Origin: Gemmatimonadales bacterium
GTDB taxonomy: Bacteria; Gemmatimonadota; Gemmatimonadetes; Gemmatimonadales; GWC2-71-9
Direction of reading: 5' to 3'
Assembly (NCBI GenBank): GCA_035251445.1
Contig: DATFEG010000070.1
Location: 3,563 to 67,562, forward strand
Length of the DNA: 64,000 nucleotides
Made by a program: the position numbers and the translations under genes. Positions 15,974 to 62,916 of the stretch are shown piece after piece; the first letter of the stretch is position 1; each line of letters starts with the position of its first letter. A model generated the notes under the pieces. The model was not told where the DNA came from. It ran no database searches and worked only from the letters and a program-made list of their open reading frames with translations.

Positions 15974-18694
15974 ATGACCGTCATCCCGAGCACGCCCGCC
16001 TGCGTCCGCGTTGCGCTGCTTCTCGCGAGTGCGCTTCCTGCTTCCTTAGTATCACAGAATATCCACTCGGTGCCCCCGCCTGAAGTCCGTGCTGTGTCCT
16101 TGCCAGGAGGAATCGATCTCGACGGCCGGCTCGCCGAGTCCATATGGCAGCTCGCGCCGGCGGCGACGGCATTCCGGCAGGCCCAGCCCAATCAGGGGGA
16201 GGCTGCGACCCAACGCACCGAGGTGCGGTTCACATTCGACGAAGCCGCCATCTACGTCGGTGCGCGCATGTACGACGATTCCGGCGCCGCCGGCGTGCGC
16301 ACGCGCCTCGCGCGACGCGATGCCGACATCAGCACCGATTACATCCAGATTATCTTCGACACCTACCACGATCATATCGGCCGTCTGTTCTTCTCGGTCA
16401 ATCCGTCCGGCGTGAAGCAGGATGCGAACGGCCTCGGTGGCGGGAGCGATCTCTCGTGGGATCCGGTCTGGGAGGTCCAGACCAACATCGATTCGCTTGG
16501 TTGGACCGCGGAGATGCGCATACCGTTTTCCCAGCTGCGCTATCCGGCGACGTCCGATGAGCAAACATGGGGTCTGCAGATCTGGCGCCAGGAAAACAGG
16601 CTGAACGAATTGTCGCAATGGGCGTGGTGGGGATTGGACGAAGCCGGTGGCCCGCCCCGCTTCGGCCATCTTCAGGGGCTGGTGATTCGTCAGGCTCCGG
16701 GCCGCGGCGAGGTCCTGCCCTATGTGCTTGGACAGGCCGCGAACGCCCCGGGCGACGCGGCTGATCCGTTCTACGATCCTAACGCCATCGACGGCCGCGT
16801 CGGCGGCGATGCGACCTTGCGGGTCACGTCGAATCTCACGTTGAACGCCACGGTCAATCCCGATTTCGGCCAGGTCGAGGTCGATCCGGCCGTCGTGAAT
16901 CTCTCGGCATACGAAACGTTTCTGCAGGAGAAGCGCCCGTTCTTCGTGGAAGGCGCCGGGTATTTCGGACTCGGTGGACTGAACTGCTACTTCTGCTCGA
17001 ATGTGTCGAGCCTCAGTATGCTCAACACCAGGCGCATCGGTCGCGCGCCGCAGATCTCGCCATGGCGTGCCGGGCTGACTATGCCCGTGGAGTACGCGGA
17101 TCCTCCACAGAACTCCACGATCGTCGGGGCAGGGAAGCTCACCGGGCGCACCCCCTCGGGCTGGTCGCTGGGTGTCCTCGAGGCCGTGACCAAGCACGAG
17201 CGCGCGCCGGTCCAGCTCGAGGATGGCACGCGCGGCACCTTTACCGTCGAGCCGCTGTCCAATTACTTCACGGCACGCGTCGCCAAGGACACACGGGGTG
17301 GCGCCACCCAGTGGCGGGCGATGGCGACGTCGCTCTATCGAAAACTCGATGACCCGTATGTGGCAAGCCGGCTGACGCGAAACGCGGAAGCCATCGGCCT
17401 GGCGACCGACAGTTGGTGGAGCAGTCGAACGTACCGATTGATGGCGCAAGTCGCCGCGACACATGTGCACGGCGACACCGCCGCGATGCGCCTGATCCGA
17501 TTCGGGTCGGCGCACTACTTCCAGCGACCCGATCGACCCGACACCGCCGACGCGCGGGCGCCGCGCACCGGAATGTCGGGACTCGGCGGCTTCGCGCGAG
17601 TCTCGAAGGAAGCTGGTCACTGGCTCTGGGAGGTCTCGACCAATTTTCGAACGCGATCATTCAACAACAACGACGTCACATTCTTTAACCGTGCCGACTA
17701 CTGGTGGATGTCCGCGAATCTCTTCCCACAGTGGACCAAGCCGAGCAGCTGGTACCGGCAGCTGTACCTGATCGGCGGCGCGCAACAGCAGTACAACTTC
17801 GACGGCGATCTCACCGACCGGCAGTATCACGCATTCGCCCAAATGCAGACACTGAGCTACTGGTGGCTGACGACGTACTGGATCCACCGGCCCGAGTTGT
17901 TCGATGACCGGCTCACCCGTGGCGGCCCGGTCGTGAGGCGGCCGGCCATCCATTACGTTTTCGCGGGCGTGAACACCGATCAGCGCAAGAAGATCGCCGC
18001 GGAATTCGGCGCGGACCGGGGCTGTAACACCGAGGGCGACTGCAACGAGTCGGTCTTCCTGCTACTGCGCTTCCAGCCGCGTCCAAACGTCGCACTCTCG
18101 TTGGGGCCGTCTGCCAACCGCCAGGAAACTGGCTTCCAATACGTCACCAGTTACGCAGATCCCACCGACGCGGTCTTCTACGGACGGCGCTACGTCTTTG
18201 CGCATTTGGACCAGCAGAATCTGTCTATGGACACGCGGTTGAACTGGACGTTCTCACCGGCCCTCACGCTCGAGCTCTTCCTGCAGCCTTTGCTCGCTTC
18301 CGGCAATTACACGCGGTACAACGTTTATGCCGCGCCGCGGTCGGCGCAGCGGCTGGAGTACGGGAAAGACTTCGGCACCGTAGAGTCGACGCCGGCCGCA
18401 GAGCCCGAGCGCGATCCCGCCTCGATCACCGTCGATGCGGATACTCTGGGCGGGGGCGCGCCGAGCAATACATTCGACGACCCGACATTCACGCTCCGCT
18501 CGCTTCGAGGGAATGCGGTGCTCCGCTGGGAATACCGGCCGGGTTCGACACTGTACGTCGTCTGGACACACACGAGCCAACTTCCCGATCTGCCGCGCGG
18601 CCAAGTCGATTTTAGCCAAGACGCGCGCGCGCTGTTTCACGGTCCGTCGGAGAACATTTTTCTCCTGAAAGTCAGTTACTGGCTGGGGTTCTAG
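15974..18694 (+). CDS. Secreted CBM9-like / DUF5916 protein
   Basis: 906 aa with a signal peptide. IDLDGRLAESIWQLAPAATAFRQAQPNQGEAATQRTEVRFTFDEAAIYVGARMYD is typical of the CBM9/DOMON-like N-terminus that precedes DUF5916. Confidence 0.75.
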   Translation: MTVIPSTPACVRVALLLASALPASLVSQNIHSVPPPEVRAVSLPGGIDLDGRLAESIWQLAPAATAFRQAQPNQGEAATQRTEVRFTFDEAAIYVGARMYDDSGAAGVRTRLARRDADISTDYIQIIFDTYHDHIGRLFFSVNPSGVKQDANGLGGGSDLSWDPVWEVQTNIDSLGWTAEMRIPFSQLRYPATSDEQTWGLQIWRQENRLNELSQWAWWGLDEAGGPPRFGHLQGLVIRQAPGRGEVLPYVLGQAANAPGDAADPFYDPNAIDGRVGGDATLRVTSNLTLNATVNPDFGQVEVDPAVVNLSAYETFLQEKRPFFVEGAGYFGLGGLNCYFCSNVSSLSMLNTRRIGRAPQISPWRAGLTMPVEYADPPQNSTIVGAGKLTGRTPSGWSLGVLEAVTKHERAPVQLEDGTRGTFTVEPLSNYFTARVAKDTRGGATQWRAMATSLYRKLDDPYVASRLTRNAEAIGLATDSWWSSRTYRLMAQVAATHVHGDTAAMRLIRFGSAHYFQRPDRPDTADARAPRTGMSGLGGFARVSKEAGHWLWEVSTNFRTRSFNNNDVTFFNRADYWWMSANLFPQWTKPSSWYRQLYLIGGAQQQYNFDGDLTDRQYHAFAQMQTLSYWWLTTYWIHRPELFDDRLTRGGPVVRRPAIHYVFAGVNTDQRKKIAAEFGADRGCNTEGDCNESVFLLLRFQPRPNVALSLGPSANRQETGFQYVTSYADPTDAVFYGRRYVFAHLDQQNLSMDTRLNWTFSPALTLELFLQPLLASGNYTRYNVYAAPRSAQRLEYGKDFGTVESTPAAEPERDPASITVDADTLGGGAPSNTFDDPTFTLRSLRGNAVLRWEYRPGSTLYVVWTHTSQLPDLPRGQVDFSQDARALFHGPSENIFLLKVSYWLGF

Positions 18695-18742
18695 GGAGCA
18701 GGGAGCAGGGAGCAGGGAGCACGGAGCAGGGAGCACGGGAGC
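18694..18742 (+). repeat. Tandem heptanucleotide array, consensus GGGAGCA: 6 good units plus 1 degenerate unit
   Basis: Read directly: GGGAGCA x4 (18694-18721), CGGAGCA, GGGAGCA, CGGGAGC. It starts on the last base of the TAG stop of the upstream gene. Confidence 0.9.
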
Positions 18743-18793
18743 GGGGAACCTGTTAGCGTTTCTACGTAGAAACTGCTCCGTGCTCCGTGCTCC
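18716..18793 (+). other. Long inverted repeat (19/20 bp arms) built from the heptamer, enclosing a perfect 16-bp palindrome
   Basis: The left arm GGAGCACGGAGCAGGGAGCA (18716-18735) pairs with the right arm TGCTCCGTGCTCCGTGCTCC (18774-18793) with one mismatch. The loop contains GTTTCTACGTAGAAAC (18758-18773). The structure ends 3 nt before the GAGG Shine-Dalgarno of pirin. Confidence 0.8.
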
Positions 18794-18805
18794 TTTGAGG
18801 TGATA

Positions 18806-19720
18806 ATGTCGATCCGTGCCGTCAAATCAATCTCGCAGTCCCAGCTTACCCTCGAAGGCGCGGGCGTCCGTCTCCGCCGGGCGTTCGGGTTTGGACGCAC
18901 CAACGACTTCGATCCGTTCCTGCTCCTCGACGATTTCCGCAACGAGCATCCTGAGGACTATCTCCCGGGATTCCCCTGGCATCCGCATCGTGGCATCGAG
19001 ACGATTACCTACGTCCTGGCTGGCAGCGTCCAGCACGGCGATAGCCTCGGTAATCGCGGCACCATGGGTGCCGGTGACGTGCAGTGGATGACCGCGGGGA
19101 GTGGGATTCTCCATCAGGAAATGCCGAGAGGGGACGACCGGGGCCGCATGCACGGCTTCCAGCTCTGGGCCAACCTGCCGCGCTCGCTCAAGATGACGGA
19201 CCCTCGCTACCAGGACATCCACGCCACGGATATTCCCGAAGTTGTAGATGACGACGGCACACGCGTGCGCGTCGTCGCCGGGGACTTCTGGGGGAAGACG
19301 GGCCCTGTCGAAGGAGTCGCGGCCGACCCCCGCTACCTCGACATCTCGATTCCGCCGCACGTGCGCAAGACGATTCCGGTCGAGGCGTCGCGCCATGCGT
19401 TCGCCTACATCTTCGAGGGCGGCGGCACCTTCCGCGATGCGTCGGCGGCGCAGGGTGTGCAGACCGATCGCGTGTCCGCGGGCGGCCGCGACGCGGGAAG
19501 CGAGAGCGCGACGGAAACCGGGAATCGGTCGCTGGTGCTGTTCGACTCGGGCGATGAAATCACGGTGCAAGCGGGCGAACAGGGTATGCGCTTCCTGCTC
19601 GTGTCGGGCAAACCGCTCGAGGAGCCGGTGGCCTGGCAGGGGCCGATCGTCATGAACACGCCGGACGAGCTGCGTCAGGCCTACGACGAACTGCGCCGCG
19701 GAACTTTTATTAGGCGTTAA
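18806..19720 (+). CDS. Pirin-family protein
   Basis: Motifs FPWHPHRGIETITYVLAGSVQHGDSLGN and WMTAGSGILHQEMP. I prefer the ATG at 18806, preceded by GAGG; the track gives a GTG at 18800. Confidence 0.9.
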   Translation: MSIRAVKSISQSQLTLEGAGVRLRRAFGFGRTNDFDPFLLLDDFRNEHPEDYLPGFPWHPHRGIETITYVLAGSVQHGDSLGNRGTMGAGDVQWMTAGSGILHQEMPRGDDRGRMHGFQLWANLPRSLKMTDPRYQDIHATDIPEVVDDDGTRVRVVAGDFWGKTGPVEGVAADPRYLDISIPPHVRKTIPVEASRHAFAYIFEGGGTFRDASAAQGVQTDRVSAGGRDAGSESATETGNRSLVLFDSGDEITVQAGEQGMRFLLVSGKPLEEPVAWQGPIVMNTPDELRQAYDELRRGTFIRR

Positions 19721-25548: not shown

Positions 25549-28500
25549 ATGGCTTCGGCGCGCAGGAAGGGAGACGCGAAGGGAAGTGCGAAGGGAGACG
25601 GGCGGACCTCAACGCCCGTGCCACGCGAGCCGATCGCCCCGCCTGCCGGTGCCCCCACCCCCAGTCAGCCTTTCGAGAACGTCGCCCCGGACGGGCTGCG
25701 CCAGCCGTCGCTGCCATTCCCGGTCGTGTGCGTAGGCGCCTCGGCGGGGGGCCTCGAGGCTTTCACGCAGCTGCTCGAGGCCACGCCCACGAACACCGGC
25801 ATGGCGTTCGTACTCGTCTCCCACCTTTCCCCTTCCCACGCCAGTCATCTCGCGGAGATCCTGTCGCGGGCCACGCGCATGCCCGTGAACGAAGTCAAGG
25901 ACGAGCCCAAGGTCCAGCCGAACCGGGTCTATGTCATCCCTCCCGATCGCAGCATGATCATTTCGGGCGGTGTGCTCAAGCTGCTGCCGCGACGCGAGGT
26001 CCGGGGTCAGCACCATCCCATCGATCTCTTCCTCGAATCCCTCGCCGAGGACCAGCAGAACAAATCGATCGCGGTGATCCTGTCCGGAACCGGGAGCGAT
26101 GGGACAGCGGGACTCGACGAGATCAAGGCCGCCGGCGGCATCACCTTCGCGCAGGACCAGACCGCAGCCTACGAGGGCATGCCGCGGAGCGCGACGATGG
26201 CGGGATCGGTGGATTTCGTCCTTCCGCCGGCCGGGATCGCGATGGAGCTGGCGAACATCGCGCGGCACGCCTACGTGTCGCCGGAAGGGCCGCTCGCGCA
26301 GCCGCCGCCGGCCGAGACGGCGCACTTCACGCAGATCCTGAATCTGCTGCACCAAACGATGGGTGTGGATTTCCACCACTACAAGACCACGACACTCATT
26401 CGCCGCATCGTGCGGCGCATGGCGCTTCACAAGCTCGACGCGCTCGCCGAATACGCCGAGTTTCTGCGCTCCCGCCCCGCCGAGATCGAAGCGCTGTTTC
26501 AGGATATCCTCATCAGCGTCACGTCGTTTTTCCGCGATCCGGAGTCGTTCGAGCTGCTGAAGACCAAGATATTTCCGCGCGTCACAGCCGAGCGTTCGAT
26601 TGGCGACGCGATCCGCATGTGGGTAGTGGGCTGCGCGACGGGCGAAGAGGCGTACTCGGTCGCGATCGCCTTCTCGGAGTTCATGGAGCGCGAAGGGCGG
26701 GTCTGGCCCGTGCAGATCTTTGCCACCGACTTGAACGGCGCCGGCGTCGAGCGCGCGCGAGGCGGACTCTATCCCAAGAGCATCTCCGAGCGTGTGTCAC
26801 CGGAGCGGCTGCGGCGCTATTTCTACGAGGTGGACGGCAAGTATCGAGTAGCGAAGTCCATTCGCGACATGTGCGTCTTTGCCAAGCATAACATCGTCGC
26901 CGACTCACCGTTTTCGCGCATGGATCTGATCAGCTGTCGCAACCTGCTCATCTATCTCGAGCCCGTGCTGCAGCAGCACCTGATGCCGATCCTCCATTAT
27001 GCCCTGAAGCCGAGCGGCTTTCTGTGGCTCGGCGCATCGGAGACGACCGGGAAATTTCGCGACCTGTTCGACGCCGATGACGCCAAGCATCGTTTCTACA
27101 TCAAGAAGCCGAACGCCGCACGCATGCCTGTGCCGCTGCCCATCCGCGGGCCCAGCGAGCGGGGCACGCAGGCGGAACTGCCGGTCAGTCAGGGACGGCG
27201 CGGCGAGGAGGTGCAGCGCGAGGCGGATCGCATTCTGCTGTCGCGCTATACCCCGCCAGGTGTGCTGGTGACCGACGATCTGGACATCCTGCAGTTCCGG
27301 GGTGATACAGGGCCCTACCTCGCTCCGGCGTCCGGACGCGCGTCGCTCAACTTGCTCAAGATGTTGCGGGAAGGTTTGCTGCTGCCGGTGCGCACCGCGA
27401 TAGCGCGCGCCAAGCGGGAAGGGAGCGCGATCCGGACAGACGACGTCCGTGTGAAATCCAACGGCGGCTGGCGACTCGTCGACCTCGAGGTCGTTCCGGT
27501 CAAAGTGTCCGGGACCGAGCGCAGCTGTTACCTGCTCCTGTTTCACGAGCCGCAGATCCAGCCCGAGCGTCTTCCGAAACCCGAGTCGGTCACCAACGCC
27601 GAGGTGGAGCAGGAGACGACGCAGCTCAAGCAGGAGCTGACCGCCACCAAGGAATACCTGCAATCGGTCATCGAGCAGCAGGAGGCGGCCACCGAGGAGC
27701 TGCAGGCGGCCAATGAGGAGGTCCAGTCGGCCAACGAAGAGCTGCAGAGTATCAATGAAGAGATCGAGACGTCCAAGGAAGAGATCCAATCGAGTAACGA
27801 AGAGCTGGCGACGGTCAACGAGGAGCTCCAGACCCGCAATGCCGAGCTGGGGCAGAGCAACAACGACCTCATGAATCTCCTCGCCAGCGTGCAGATGGCG
27901 ATCGTGATGCTCGGCGCCGATCTCCGCATCCGCCGCTTCACCCCGATGGCGGAGAAGATGCTGAACCTCATCGCGACGGACGTCGGGCGGCCGCTCACCG
28001 ACATCAGGCTCAATTTCGATGTCCCCGATCTCGAGAAGATCCTCGGGGAAGTCCTCGAGACGATCCAGCCCTACCAGCGGGATGTGCAGGACAGGAACGG
28101 ACGCTGGCACTCGCTGCGGGTGCGCCCATACCGCACGCTCGAAAACCGCATCGACGGCGTGGTGATCGTCCTGGTGGACATCGATTCGGTGAAGTCGACA
28201 GCCGAATCGCTGCGCGTCAGCGCCGAGCGGCTGCGAATCATGTACGACCGCGCGCCCGTGGGGATTTTCGAAACCGATCTCGAGGGACGGTTCACCCGAG
28301 TCAACGATATGTTCTGCCGTCTGACCGGCCGCTCGCGCGAAACGCTGCTCGCGCTGCGATCGGAAGACATCACCCATCCCGACGATATCCTTGCGGAACG
28401 CGAGGATTACCATCGAATTCGGAACGGCGCGACGGCCTCCGTGCGCCGGGAGAAGCGCTACCTGCGCGAAGGGGGCGAGCCGGTCTGGGTCGAGGTGCAC

Positions 28501-30874: not shown

Positions 30875-31546
30875 ATGGCGCGAATCTCGGCGGACCAATT
30901 CGGGGAACGGCTCAGTGCGGCTCTCGGCGGCCGGCTGGTGACGCTGGTGCTCTATGGCTCGGCTGCGAGAGAGCACGGAGCACGGAGCACGGAGCAGACG
31001 GGCGTCAACACATTGCTCATTGTCGACCGGATTGACGCCGACGTCTTTGACCAGATCGTCGCAACCGTGGGCGAGTGGATGAGCGCCAAGCACCCGGCGC
31101 CGTTGGTGATGACGGAACAGGAGTGGCGGGCCTCGGCGGACGCCTTTCCCATCGAATACGACGACATTCGCGCGTATCATCGCGTGCTGGCCGGCAGGGA
31201 TCCGTGGGACGGCATCCGGGTCAAGCGCGAGCATGTGCGCCGCCAGCTCGAGCACGAGCTCAAGGGCAAGCTGATGCACCTGCGGCAGGCCTACGCAGCC
31301 GAGTGGAAGAGTCCCAAGCGCCTGACCGAAGTGGTGCGCGGCACCTGGGCGGGGTTCCTCACGATGTTGCGGGCCGTGCTGCGGCTCGCCGGGCGCGACG
31401 TGCCGGCTTCCGCCGATGCGCTGGTGCGAGACGCCGCCGCACTGATAGGATTTTCCGTGGGGCGATTGAACGAGCCGGTAAGCTACCTCGACGCGGTGAC
31501 GCGCACGGCGCAGTACGTCGACCGCATGGAAAGGACTGCTTTGTGA
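30875..31546 (+). CDS. Nucleotidyltransferase-fold (Pol-beta-like) protein with a helical C-terminal domain. The catalytic loop carries the heptamer array.
   Basis: The ATG lies 1 nt after the TPM stop. It has the LVLYGSAAR...GVNTLLIVD NTase-like core and overlaps lemA as GTGA. The acidic D-x-D motif is not evident. Confidence 0.65.
   Translation: MARISADQFGERLSAALGGRLVTLVLYGSAAREHGARSTEQTGVNTLLIVDRIDADVFDQIVATVGEWMSAKHPAPLVMTEQEWRASADAFPIEYDDIRAYHRVLAGRDPWDGIRVKREHVRRQLEHELKGKLMHLRQAYAAEWKSPKRLTEVVRGTWAGFLTMLRAVLRLAGRDVPASADALVRDAAALIGFSVGRLNEPVSYLDAVTRTAQYVDRMERTAL
30970..30997 (+). repeat. Tandem heptanucleotide array GAGCACG x3 plus GAGCAGA, inside a CDS
   Basis: Read directly. It is the same heptamer family (GGAGCAC/GGAGCAG) as at 18694-18793, and it encodes EHGARSTEQ. 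Confidence 0.85.
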
Positions 31547-32156: not shown

Positions 32157-32585
32157 ATGCCACGAATTGAAGCGAGCCCACTCGAGCGACACCGTGCCGC
32201 CAGCGCGGTCTCGGAACGGGACGCAGCCAAGCGCTGTCTCGTTGCCATCATCGAGGATGATACCGAGTTCCGGAATATGCTGCGCGAGCTGCTCGAAGAG
32301 GAGCAGTACCGCGTCGTCGCGGTATCCAATGGTGCCGAAGCCCTCGAAACGCTCCGCGGCAACACGGTGCCCAATGTCATTTTGCTCGACGTGTCGATGC
32401 CCGTGATGGACGGCTTCGATTTTCTTCGCATCCGAAACGATGATCCGCGCCTCGCGCAGGTTCCCGTCGTGCTCGTGACGAACGCCAAGCCGCACGAGCG
32501 CCCGACTGTCGGCGTCAACGATGTCGTCCGCAAGCCGATCGACATCGACGAGATTCTGTTCGCAATCAAGCGCTACTGCGACTGA
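32157..32585 (+). CDS. Stand-alone receiver-domain response regulator
   Basis: 142 aa, with VAIIEDDTEFRNML and ILLDVSMPVMDGFDFL. It has no output domain. Confidence 0.85.
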   Translation: MPRIEASPLERHRAASAVSERDAAKRCLVAIIEDDTEFRNMLRELLEEEQYRVVAVSNGAEALETLRGNTVPNVILLDVSMPVMDGFDFLRIRNDDPRLAQVPVVLVTNAKPHERPTVGVNDVVRKPIDIDEILFAIKRYCD

Positions 32586-32631
32586 TCGTTGATCATCGAT
32601 CATTGATCATTGATTAATGATCATTGATCAT
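32583..32631. repeat. Seven tandem heptamers, consensus TGATCAT (palindromic core TGATCA, six GATC sites), followed by T6
   Basis: Read directly: TGATCGT TGATCAT CGATCAT TGATCAT TGATTAA TGATCAT TGATCAT, then TGTTTTTTG. The array begins at the TGA of the response-regulator gene and supplies the last codons (MINDH*) of the convergent kinase gene. Confidence 0.9.
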
Positions 32632-33846
32632 TGTTTTTTGCGGGCCTCGCGGCAGCGTAAAGAAGAATGTCGTGCCCTCCCCGGATCGACTCTCGACCCA
32701 GATCCGGCCACCCAGTGCCTCGACTACTCCCTTTGCAATCGTCAGCCCCAGGCCGCTGCCGAGTCGCGCTTTTGGCGTGGCCTGCCAGAAGCGATCGAAT
32801 ACGTGGGGCAGCTGCTCGGACGAAATGCCGATGCCGCTGTCCCGGACGGAGAACACCACCTCGTCGTCGAGTCGCTGCGCCGTAACCTGCACCGATCCAC
32901 CGTCCGGCGTGAACTTGATCGCGTTGCCGATCAGATTACCCAGCACCTGGAGGACGCGCTCGCGGTCGCACACGACATCGATCCCGTCTGCCACGTTCTG
33001 CTCGATACGCAGCGACCTGTCGCCCGCCTGAACCTGACAGGCCGCCACGGCCTCCTCGATGATCGGCCGGACGGGCTCGCGGAGCGGCTCCACAAAGAGC
33101 CGTCCCGCTTCGATGCTCGCGACATCGAGCAAGTCGCCGATCAGCCGGTTCATCCGCTCGGCAGAACGGCGAATCGCTTCGACGTGGCGGCGGTCGCGGC
33201 GGCCTTCGTCATCGGGGGGTAGGCTGCGCAGCAGCAGGCCGACCGCCGTAAGAACGGTGTTCAGGCCGTTCCGGAGATCGTGCGAAATGGCGGCGAGCGT
33301 GTCGTCGCGCGCGCGACTCGCCTGTCGCGCCTGTTGGTACAGGCGGGCGTTGTCGGCGCCCAACGCGGTCCGTTGTGCGATGTCCTCGAGCTTTGACAGA
33401 TCGCTGCGCGAGAACGTGCGGTCGGGCCGAGTCATTGCGAGCGTCAATACACCGAGCAGGCGCCCTCGTCCAATCAGTGGGAGCAGGACGAGCGAGCGGA
33501 TGCCCGCGGCGCGAATGGCTGCCTGGCCGGAGGGATCTGTCGTGATGGCGCCGAGCGTTGAGGCCGTGAGATCGGGAATGAGCAGCGTCTCGCCGGCACG
33601 AAGGCTGGGCGTCGGCACCAGGTGCCAGTCGTCTAGCGAGTTATCCACGCGTTGCACGGATCCGTCGTCGTCGATGACATCGACGAGACAGACGTCACCC
33701 AGGCGGGGCACCACCAGACGCGCGACCCCTGAGAGCATCGCCCGCTCGTCCAGCGCCGAGGCGAGTATCTCGGCGAGGTTCGACAGGAAGCGTTGCTCTT
33801 CGGCATCGGCTTTCGCGACCCTTGGCGTGCTGCTCTTTACTTTCAC
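32614..33846 (-). CDS. GAF-domain sensor histidine kinase
   Basis: 410 aa with an N-terminal GAF-like region, [13 protein letters not shown] (H-box), [11 protein letters not shown] (N-box) and [13 protein letters not shown] (G2). Confidence 0.9.
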
Positions 33847-40496: not shown

Positions 40497-41708
40497 CTAC
40501 CGCAATGGCGCCCCGAGTTGAATCCACCGCGCTAGGATGCTCCGCTCCTGATCGGTCATGCCGGTCTTGTTGGCGATCGGCATCGTCCTCGTTTCGATTG
40601 CGCGTATCCTGATTCGCTCGGCTTGCCTGGCGATGCTTTCAGGCGTGTCGAAGGTAACCCCGCCCGGAGCCGGCCCGAATGTGCGATCGGTCTGGTATTG
40701 GGAGTGGCAGGGCTGACACCGCTGCGCGATCACTGACCGCACTGCCGCGAAACCCACAGTGTCGCCTGCCGCGCCTGCCCCGTCTGCCCCGTCTGCCCCG
40801 TCTGTCCCGCCCCTCATGCCCGTGGTCGAGAAGAACATCGCGCCAGCCAGCCCGAGTGCCGCCGGCAGGATTGCCCAGCGGCTCGACGACCCTCGACCGA
40901 TCATGGCGTGCCGCATCGCCGCGCCGGCGACAAAGAGAAATAGAAACACGAGCCAGTTCAGCCGGCTGGCGTACGTGGACGGGTAGTGATTCGACAGCAT
41001 GATGAAGAGCAGCGGAAAGGTCATGTAGCTGTTGTGCACGGAGCGCAGCTTCGCCCGCTCGCCCAATGTGAAGTCGGCAGCCCGGCCCGCGCGTGTCGCC
41101 GCCAACATCTCGCGCTGTGCGGGTAAGATCCGCAGCCAGACGTTGAGAACCATTATGGTGCCGAGGAGGGAGCCGACGTGCATGAACGCCGCGCGGCCCG
41201 AGAGAAGCCGGCAGACCAAATACGTCACGACAGCGAGCAACACCAGCGCAAGGGTGGTTGCCGCGCCCGGCCCGCGGCGCGCCAGGGACGACGACCACAG
41301 CCAGTCGTAAACCAGCCACCCCCCAACCAGGATTCCGACCCCGATTGCCGTCGCAGCACCGCGGCTGATGCGCGAGTCACCAGGATCCAGTAGGTAAGCG
41401 TTGCTCAGGTAATAGACGAGAATGAGCAACGCCACCCCCGAGATCCACGTAAACAGCGCTTCCCACTTGAACCAATGGAGGACGGGCGGCACCTCACCGG
41501 GGCCGGGTTTGCGCTTCTCGACTTGATAGAACCCGCCGCTGTGCACCATCCAGAGGTCGCCTTCGACGCCGGGGCGCGGCGCCGCCGGGGCCGTGAGCGT
41601 GCGGTCCAACCATATGAAATAGAAGGAGCTGCCAATCCAGGCGATGCCCGCAACGAAGTGTGTCCAGCGGAGAAGGAGATTCGCCCAGTCAGCGAGCCAG
41701 CTCGTCAT
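40497..41708 (-). CDS. puuD: PuuD-like (urate hydroxylase family) membrane protein with a C-terminal cytochrome c domain
   Basis: Contains WANLLLRWTHFVAGIAWIGSSFYFIWLD, GDLWMVHSGGFYQVEK and the heme motif CQPCH. The family name is recalled from memory. Confidence 0.75.
   Translation of the reverse strand: MTSWLADWANLLLRWTHFVAGIAWIGSSFYFIWLDRTLTAPAAPRPGVEGDLWMVHSGGFYQVEKRKPGPGEVPPVLHWFKWEALFTWISGVALLILVYYLSNAYLLDPGDSRISRGAATAIGVGILVGGWLVYDWLWSSSLARRGPGAATTLALVLLAVVTYLVCRLLSGRAAFMHVGSLLGTIMVLNVWLRILPAQREMLAATRAGRAADFTLGERAKLRSVHNSYMTFPLLFIMLSNHYPSTYASRLNWLVFLFLFVAGAAMRHAMIGRGSSSRWAILPAALGLAGAMFFSTTGMRGGTDGADGADGAGAAGDTVGFAAVRSVIAQRCQPCHSQYQTDRTFGPAPGGVTFDTPESIARQAERIRIRAIETRTMPIANKTGMTDQERSILARWIQLGAPLR
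40775..40810. repeat. In-frame 9-nt tandem repeat (CTGCCCCGT x3 plus 1 degenerate unit)
   Basis: Read directly. It encodes the DGADGADGAG linker between the membrane and cytochrome c parts of the PuuD-like protein. Confidence 0.85.
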
Positions 41709-62849: not shown

Positions 62850-62897
62850 CCGAGCCGCGGCTTCAGCCGCGCTCCGAGCCGCGGCTTCAGCCGCGCT
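62850..62897. repeat. Perfect 24-nt tandem duplication
   Basis: CCGAGCCGCGGCTTCAGCCGCGCT occurs twice, read directly. Each unit contains the palindrome AGCCGCGGCT. Confidence 0.9.
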
Positions 62898-62916
62898 CGC
62901 CGTCCTGCCTAAACCC

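Follow-up and report, generated by a model that had tools for sequence, protein, structure and literature searches.

Tandem repeats with a unit of seven nucleotides have been known in bacteria since 1990, and work from 2007 found heptamers to be the dominant long simple repeat. Those of cyanobacteria, the STRR heptamers, were reportedly described by Mazel et al. in 1990. Here, we examine a repeat of this kind in a 64-kb stretch of DNA (hereafter, the window) from a soil Gemmatimonadales bacterium, in which a direct heptamer array and an inverted one lie between a gene for a DUF5916 protein and the gene for pirin. In Xanthomonas and Nostoc, GGGAATC and GGGGAYT repeats, respectively, are over-represented in intergenic regions, comprise about four units and overlap stop codons (Rehm et al. 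2015, PMC4692102). Xanthomonas genomes carry 70-75 convergent inverted pairs each, and repeat length varies between species while the singular or paired type is usually preserved (PMC4692102). These repeats formed G-quadruplexes (G4) in vitro, most of them are transcribed, and transcript starts and ends are more frequent at the G4-capable repeats than at the others (PMC4692102). Mrazek 2007 is cited in PMC4692102 and PMC4679880 for the finding that most genomes rich in 5-11-nt repeats have heptamers as their most abundant class of long repeat, and for the proposal that slippage linked to the polymerase footprint is responsible.

We show that the window element matches the class of Rehm et al. 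on every positional feature. We regard it, with high confidence, as the counterpart of the Xanthomonas GGGAATC inverted pairs, and it is very probably one locus of a dispersed Gemmatimonadales family of GGAGCA(G/C) heptamer simple sequence repeats (SSRs), with direct and inverted arrays around a conserved core. The original prediction, made from the letters of the window alone, had known of no description of such repeats in a high-GC diderm of this kind; the Xanthomonas class (PMC4692102) provides one, and the element belongs to a known class rather than being new for such a bacterium. Overall, we favor the reading that it is a slippage-generated repeat pair making a long intercistronic RNA hairpin, to which we assign a probability of roughly 0.5.

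The element fills the gap between two genes on the forward strand (Table 1). The TAG stop codon of the DUF5916 gene (18692-18694, context ttcTAG) ends in a G that doubles as the first base of the array, as the original prediction had stated, and both the C-terminus (YWLGF*) and the stop position of this gene are kept in relatives. Tandem Repeats Finder (TRF) called the direct array at 18693-18747 (period 7, 7.7 copies, 89% matches). It is followed by GGGGAACCTGTTAGC, then by the palindrome GTTTCTACGTAGAAAC, and then by the inverted array, which TRF reported as 2.9 copies of TGCTCCG, the reverse complement of GGAGCAC, with 100% matches (18774-18793). The two 20-nt arms are complementary at 19 of 20 positions, with 38 nt between them, and only TTT separates the end of the right arm from the GAGG of the pirin ribosome-binding site; the claimed inverted repeat and the perfect 16-bp palindrome in its loop are both present. 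The pirin ATG opens a protein beginning MSIRAVKS, matching relatives, and from this start it is 92% identical over 304 aa to that of the closest relative (L204). The best pirin homologues are 89-90% identical, and those with a source name are Gemmatimonadales. As a description of the feature, the earlier account is accurate.

Table 1 Features of the DUF5916-pirin interval in the window (regex, regular-expression search; MFE, minimum free energy).
Feature	Position (nt)	Strand	Evidence or remark
DUF5916 gene with CBM9-like domain	15974..18694	+	Pfam DUF5916 6e-48, CBM9_1 1.5e-5
Direct heptamer array (GGGAGCA x4, CGGAGCA, GGGAGCA, CGGGAGC)	18694..18742	+	Sequence, TRF
Canonical G4 motif, G3-N4-G3-N4-G3-N4-G3, units 1-4	18694..18717	+	Regex; sequence motif only
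Inverted-repeat left arm (GGAGCAC GGAGCAG GGAGCA)	18716..18735	+	95% complementary; paired in MFE structure
Conserved spacer core, GGGGAACCTGTTAGCGTTTCTACGTAGAAAC	18743..18773	+	Alignment of eight orthologous spacers
Perfect 16-bp palindrome inside core, GTTTCTACGTAGAAAC	18758..18773	none	Lineage-specific
Inverted heptamer array, hairpin right arm (TGCTCCG TGCTCCG TGCTCC)	18774..18793	+	TRF
Pirin ribosome-binding site (GAGG)	18797..18800	+	3 nt past hairpin; same position in all orthologous spacers
Pirin gene (bicupin)	18806..19720	+	Pfam Pirin and Pirin_C; ATG start 18806

The heptanucleotide array is of the STRR/heptamer-SSR kind that had been proposed, and it lies well beyond chance, as the two-unit pattern matched 11 times in the window against 0.32 expected, a count equaled in none of 100 shuffles. 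Under one uniform criterion, the window holds three arrays of period 7, one of period 9 and none of periods 4-6, 8 or 10-12; period 7 is thus the only clearly favored repeat period in these 64 kb. By iteration, by this period-7 excess and by its dispersal, the repeat falls within the broad heptanucleotide long-SSR class (Mrazek 2007; STRR-like). Two of the apparent regularities carry less weight. The 19/20 complementarity of the arms does not constitute independent evidence, because one heptamer is repeated in both orientations, and with three perfect 16-bp palindromes in the window, such palindromes are not rare.

The comparison that carries our argument comprises eight distinct orthologous DUF5916-pirin spacers, the window included. 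All eight share the stop position, an invariant GGAACC (18745-18750 in the window), a GTT, and the GAGG before the ATG, and they fall into three classes: core only (three; L124, L127 and L123), an unrelated heptamer (one; L121), and a GGAGCN pair (four). Among the core-only spacers, the 60-nt spacer of L127/L128 (pirin 89% identical) is little more than one 12-bp hairpin, GGGGAACCGGTT…AACCGGTTCCCC, and those of L123 (88%) and L124/L125 (90%) consist of the core with a weaker closing stem. L121 (90%) has an intact core and, 5' of it, a separate hairpin built from the unrelated heptamer TGGTGCG x3 and its inverse. Within the third class, counts of the GGAGCN and NGCTCC motifs give 7 direct and 3 inverted units in the window and 3 direct and 4 inverted units in L204, the closest relative (92%), while L126 (88%) carries 4 GGGAGCA-type units and 4 inverted ones. 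In L122 (89%), imperfect GGAGCTN-type units and mirrored CAGCTCC and TGGCTCC stand around the core, counted as 3+2 by regex, as against about 4-5 + 4 imperfect units by eye. Copy number therefore varies between relatives (7+3, 3+4, 4+4 and about 3+2), a point in favor of the original prediction. Four of the eight spacers (window, L204, L126 and L122) share the GGAGCN pair as an orthologous feature, and it is not an assembly artefact. Aligned in this way, the eight spacers form an evolutionary series running from no array through few units to many.

The surroundings of pirin also differ between relatives. In the contig of one relative, P0005 (JGI 3300056388; pirin 89% identical), an 849-aa DUF3857/transglutaminase gene lies between the DUF5916 and pirin genes and, as read from the gene list, occupies the exact place of the window's repeat pair. 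Gene order around pirin is unlike between the window and L204.

The manner in which the units are arranged bears on how the pair arose. The left arrays of L204, L126 and L122 are in register with the invariant GGAACC(G/T), and unit variants are mirrored across the arms: GGAGCA faces TGCTCC in the window, L204 and L126, and in L122 GGAGCTG pairs with CAGCTCC and GGAGCCA with TGGCTCC. Correspondingly, the right-hand GGTTCC arm has been swapped for TGCTCC or AGCTCC units complementary to the new left units. In-register arrays with matching arms fit a 7-nt duplication beside the conserved core and do not fit insertion of a foreign element. The idea that direct array, loop and inverted array form one mobile palindromic unit inserted between genes, in the manner of REPINs, miniature inverted-repeat transposable elements or Rickettsia palindromic elements, is largely refuted for this locus, since repeat-free orthologs carry the same core, and appears highly improbable. 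It could draw on the similar hairpin pairs found at many loci, including two in-frame cases inside open reading frames (ORFs; uvrA and a LigD-like gene), a placement also known for Rickettsia palindromic elements. However, the loops of different copies are unrelated, the window loop is the ancestral spacer core that also occurs in array-free relatives, and arm lengths differ in steps of whole units, as expected of slippage. Additionally, neither the palindrome nor the core has another copy in the window or in 203 loci, which argues against a mobile element, and a further array within one of the window's own genes (30970-30996) is not an insertion.

The palindrome itself had been presented as a meaningful part of the structure, yet it is specific to the window lineage. 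L204 carries GTTCTCTTAGTAAC in its place, and relatives have quasi-palindromes only. Compared with those at L204:4323-4336 and L121:362-378, the window palindrome (18758-18773) differs by clustered changes, which might be the signature expected of template-switch correction of a quasi-palindrome. By this comparison of spacers, the G4 spacing and the palindrome, the most eye-catching aspects of the element, are its least conserved.

We next consider what the spacer would form as RNA. The window sequence from stop to ATG has a predicted folding energy of -57.1 kcal/mol (z = -5.6) with a stem of about 22 bp, so that the proposed pairing into a long hairpin adjoining the pirin ribosome-binding site holds as a predicted fold. 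Six of the eight orthologous spacers fold far better than shuffles (z = -5.6, -7.6, -9.2, -4.6, -6.9 and -6.0). The predicted hairpin ends 0-3 nt before GAGG in array-bearing spacers and overlaps GAGG in several repeat-free ones. A scan of 18300-19200 against Rfam returned sub-threshold microRNA-precursor matches only, i.e., a generic hairpin.

The original prediction had instead emphasized a switch, in which a G4 formed by the array in DNA or RNA would compete with the hairpin and thereby control termination or pirin translation. Several observations speak for this: on the sense strand, three more G-tracts come after the four perfect G3N4 units, G4 formation in vitro is known for similar heptamers, with stem-loop competition noted by Rehm et al. 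(PMC4692102), and a G4-hairpin switch was proposed in Escherichia coli (PMC5100583). Nevertheless, the G4 motif occurs by regex in only two of the eight spacers (window and L126) and is absent from the closest relative, L204. In L126 every G-tract lies inside the predicted stem, and members of the wider family such as GGAGCAC lack the G3 tract. Energetically, ViennaRNA gives the G4 of units 1-4 -8.4 kcal/mol against -49 for the core hairpin and -57 for the full spacer, and the MFE structure stays a hairpin in every spacer when G4 are allowed. The two structures are not really exclusive either, since the G4 (18694-18717) overlaps the core hairpin (18716-18793) by only 2 nt, contrary to the mutually exclusive folds that had been claimed. 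G4 motifs form nine clusters in the window and are thus not rare in this DNA. We consider the switch very unlikely, and suggest that the G4 potential of the four surplus left-hand units may be incidental. In these folding models the conserved physical property would be the long stem rather than the quadruplex, with the stem itself predicted to be absent from two repeat-free relatives.

Returning to the slippage-generated hairpin, we propose the following course. Replication slippage in steps of 7 nt would have expanded both arrays next to the conserved GGAACC…GTTCT core, which in most repeat-free relatives is closed by a short stem. Arm complementarity might then be kept by selection or by intrastrand template switching, with copy number drifting between lineages. 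In a transcript reading through from DUF5916, the stem of about 22 bp would fill the space from the stop codon to the pirin ribosome-binding site and could act post-transcriptionally in one or more of three ways: as a 3'-end barrier protecting the upstream message, as a pause or partial-termination site, or as a target of an RNase III-type double-strand RNase. Each of these roles would uncouple pirin expression from the upstream gene. Precedents come from the Xanthomonas and Nostoc class, with its transcript starts and ends more frequent at the repeats than at controls (PMC4692102), and from the RNase III-cut heptamer hairpin of Haemophilus influenzae hmw1A (PMC12721329).

We put forward this post-transcriptional role only tentatively, and several points weigh against it. 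The functional steps are all inferred. Shuffled sequences fold as well as the repeat-free spacers of L124 and L123 (z about -0.7 and -0.6), so a strong hairpin is not needed at the DUF5916-pirin locus, and relatives with other upstream genes (L118 and L119/L120) are array-free. An intrinsic-terminator scan at the locus gave no match, and there is no U-tract beyond TTT. The mirrored unit variants could come from templated mutation without selection. About half of the sampled Gemmatimonadales arrays lie inside ORFs, usually with 3-4 units, which is easier to reconcile with a mutational process than with a dedicated RNA signal. Moreover, if the core is the pirin promoter, the pirin transcript would not include the left arm, and no hairpin could arise in it. 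Finally, the study of the Xanthomonas repeats by Rehm et al. identified no regulatory role for them (PMC4692102).

Two other functions offered by the original prediction are not borne out. An intrinsic terminator is disfavored by the unmatched scan, the 38-nt loop and the mere TTT after the stem. A slippage-prone contingency repeat is at odds with an array placed between the stop codon and the ribosome-binding site of a gene for a cytoplasmic enzyme. We likewise rejected a contingency SSR for phase variation, as the repeat is not in the ORF or promoter spacer of a surface gene and the downstream gene is pirin.

Much of the same evidence could be accommodated by a neutral by-product, that is, slippage-prone repeats whose complementarity is maintained by template switching, with no effect on either gene and a spacer unconstrained outside its core. 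Close relatives differ freely in whether they have the arrays and in how many units these contain, a weak hairpin suffices in two orthologs, and the GGAGCA(G/C) unit is also found within coding sequence, for example in a uvrA and a LigD-like ORF. In line with this, no function was found for the Xanthomonas class (PMC4692102), and a slippage origin of heptamers was proposed in Mrazek 2007, as cited in PMC4692102 and PMC4679880. We nonetheless rate the neutral explanation slightly below the post-transcriptional role, given that inverted pairing recurs at independent loci with differing units (window, L121, L145, L082 and L110), that, on the sense strand, arrays are placed at stop codons just as they are in Xanthomonas, and that very stable stems persist across lineages 8-12% apart in pirin protein.

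It is also conceivable, although we consider it quite unlikely, that the element works at the DNA level. Here, the arrays would flank a pirin promoter or operator (the GGAACC…GTTCT core) and act by extruding a cruciform, by altering spacing or helical phase, or by binding protein along their length. Every one of the eight spacers has GGAACC and GTT unchanged, and of 78 distinct loci, 12 carry the pattern GGAAC-N16-18-(C/T)GTT upstream of pirin, where shuffles give 0.19. Moreover, the 409 kb of unselected pirin loci contain four heptamer arrays, each of them upstream of pirin. Against this stand boxes merely 7-8 nt apart in the window group, short of promoter spacing, a sigma-70-like promoter scan of the region that gave no match, and the lack of a known binding protein; GGAAC/GTTCC is also simply an inverted repeat. 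For the same reason of spacing, GGAACC was rejected as the -35 box of an extracytoplasmic function (ECF)-type pirin promoter, the window and its seven orthologs having (T/C)GTT 7-8 nt away rather than 16-18.

The wider pattern merits description in its own right. The 12 occurrences lie 40-120 nt upstream of pirin; shuffles average 0.19 and never exceed 2, and other parts of the loci carry the pattern at 0.003 per 150 nt. They include L129, L132, L135, L137, L139, L144, L165, L174, L179 and L119, among others. Judged by sequence, GGAAC-N16-18-(C/T)GTT could represent promoters of the ECF-sigma type or, alternatively, a GGAAC/GTTCC inverted repeat. Both boxes persist in the window group, 10 nt closer together.

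The dispersal of the family was assessed by searching one genome per species for runs of three GGAGCA(G/C) units, and we consider the first 117 loci among the matches listed. Among these, at least 13 Gemmatimonadales loci carry GGAGCA(G/C) arrays, and the other sources include heterocystous cyanobacteria, Planctomycetes, Verrucomicrobia and Bacteroidetes; GGAGCAS arrays are likewise found in Nostoc, Calothrix, Moorena and Fischerella. The 117 loci, chosen for one heptamer array each, contain 232 period-7 arrays as against at most 8 of any other period, and therefore genomes with one heptamer array tend to have many, with varied units. Unselected relative DNA, i.e., the 409 kb around pirin homologues, contains 4 period-7 arrays, which is no clear excess. 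Within Gemmatimonadales, many arrays begin at stop codons, with starts 0-25 nt past them in L057, L069, L048 and L110, and inverted pairs occur in L082 (15+8 units), L110, L101 and L105. Many units of the Gemmatimonadales family are GGAGCAC and thus without a G3 tract.

One further member of the family lies in the window itself. An array of (GGAGCAC)x3.9, the unit of the pirin-side arm, occupies 30970-30996 within a gene at 30875-31546 (+), where it is in frame in a 223-aa product and encodes REHGARSTEQ; homologues of this gene have no recorded Pfam domain. We excluded a recent 21-nt insertion at this site, since all homologues keep an ExGAxSxEQ of equal length and L204 also has the array. In-frame GGAGCAG/GGAGCAC arrays with inverted partners were also observed at L105:1022-1100 and L101:1970-2050, in a uvrA ORF and a LigD-like ORF; the array-bearing segment of uvrA exceeds its counterpart in solved UvrA structures by about 15 residues. 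These in-frame arrays resemble the in-frame palindromic elements of Rickettsia.

The four period-7 arrays in the 409 kb around pirin homologues are L126:2897-2930, L145:13-39, L182:2833-2878 and L190:2562-2606. In L145, (GCTGGTA)n and an inverted copy reach the ATG of a pirin 73% identical to that of the window, and the L190 array is (GGGAATA)x6. This distribution suggests a pirin-specific predisposition to upstream arrays, read from the positions of a small number of them.

The window contains other tandem repeats. At 32583-32633, (TGATCAT)x7.3 lies between a response-regulator gene (ending at 32585, +) and a convergent histidine-kinase gene (ending at 32614, -). The palindrome TGATCA within the unit makes the array almost self-complementary, with a folding energy of -30.6 kcal/mol. 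Together with the TTGTTTTTTG that comes next, it has the form of an intrinsic terminator, and it also holds six GATC sites spaced 7 nt apart. In 20.5 kb of L204, whose downstream gene order differs, no array of the (TGATCAT) type was found. Repeats at 27658-27833, 40763-40811 and 62850-62898 have periods of 21/42, 9/18 and 24 nt, respectively; as multiples of three, these are probably coding repeats.

On a more speculative note, the GGAGCA(G/C) hairpins could constitute a self-propagating Gemmatimonadales repeat system, in which repeats nucleate on stop-proximal hairpin arms, the arms template each other, and copies settle in frame in genes such as uvrA and the LigD-like gene. We hold this to be improbable. 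If true, the spacer series (none, 3+4, 4+4 and 7+3) would be a rare natural time-course of the birth of a heptamer repeat, and it would become possible to test directly why long bacterial SSRs are dominated by 7-nt units.

Overall, the locus adds a new phylum and a new unit to an already described class of heptamer repeats. Its main value is the comparative series, in which the same spacer is seen without repeats, with few and with many. With its in-register arrays and mirrored arm changes, this series offers a system to test slippage against templating and selection, and whether heptamer pairs act as RNA hairpins. The locus also cautions against reading a G-quadruplex function from spacing alone.

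Among known systems, repetitive extragenic palindromes (REPs), REPINs and intercistronic stem-loops stabilize upstream mRNA, and REPs are conserved imperfect palindromes moved by RAYT transposases. Our element likewise is a dispersed extragenic hairpin-forming repeat between co-oriented genes, which makes REP/REPIN sequences a plausible model for its action; it differs in that its arm length varies by whole heptamer units and in that full-length copies including the loop are not conserved. With the cyanobacterial STRR repeats it shares tandem heptamers that are genome-dispersed and mostly intergenic, with units typical of a lineage. Unlike strict STRR repeats, its units are not those of STRR1-3, its host is not a heterocystous cyanobacterium, and the inverted-pair hairpin is its main feature.

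Other heptamer systems resemble the element in part. The (ATCTTTC)n repeat of Haemophilus influenzae hmw1A is transcribed and forms a long hairpin in the 5' untranslated region that is cut by RNase III (PMC12721329). There too a heptamer SSR directly upstream of a gene provides the left hairpin arm, and stem length follows repeat number. In contrast to that experimentally shown phase-variable adhesin locus, with its non-repeat G-rich right arm, here the right arm is itself a repeat, the gene is the cytoplasmic pirin and the hairpin is predicted. TAACTGA direct repeats occur in marine Beggiatoaceae, cyanobacteria and Bacteroidetes (MacGregor 2015, PMC4679880), and are similarly lineage-typical tandem heptamers in many intergenic regions near start codons. 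They differ in being A/T-rich, usually of 2-6 copies, almost never inverted, and located just upstream of start codons rather than at stops. The G-rich E. coli motif for which a G4-hairpin switch was proposed in 2016 (PMC5100583) is, like our array, also able to fold as a hairpin, but it is a conserved single motif, whereas the present repeat is an SSR whose G4 capacity is not conserved.

The closest correspondence is with the repeats of Rehm et al. 2015. Shared features are a heptamer of G3 plus 4 nt, four perfect units, an array on the stop-codon G, co-oriented flanking genes, a high-GC diderm host, and a convergent inverted partner (18774-18793) giving a stem-loop. Repeat number likewise varies among relatives while the singular or paired type is usually kept. 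The differences lie in the unit, which is GGAGCA(G/C), with C at position 6 rather than the conserved T, as opposed to the consensus GGGANTN (Xanthomonas) or GGGGAYT (Nostoc); in the third G, which is often missing (many CGGAGCA); in the phylum, Gemmatimonadota; and in the G4 capacity, which orthologs have not kept. Beyond what characterizes that class, the arrays of the window group flank, in register, a core that is also present in repeat-free relatives.

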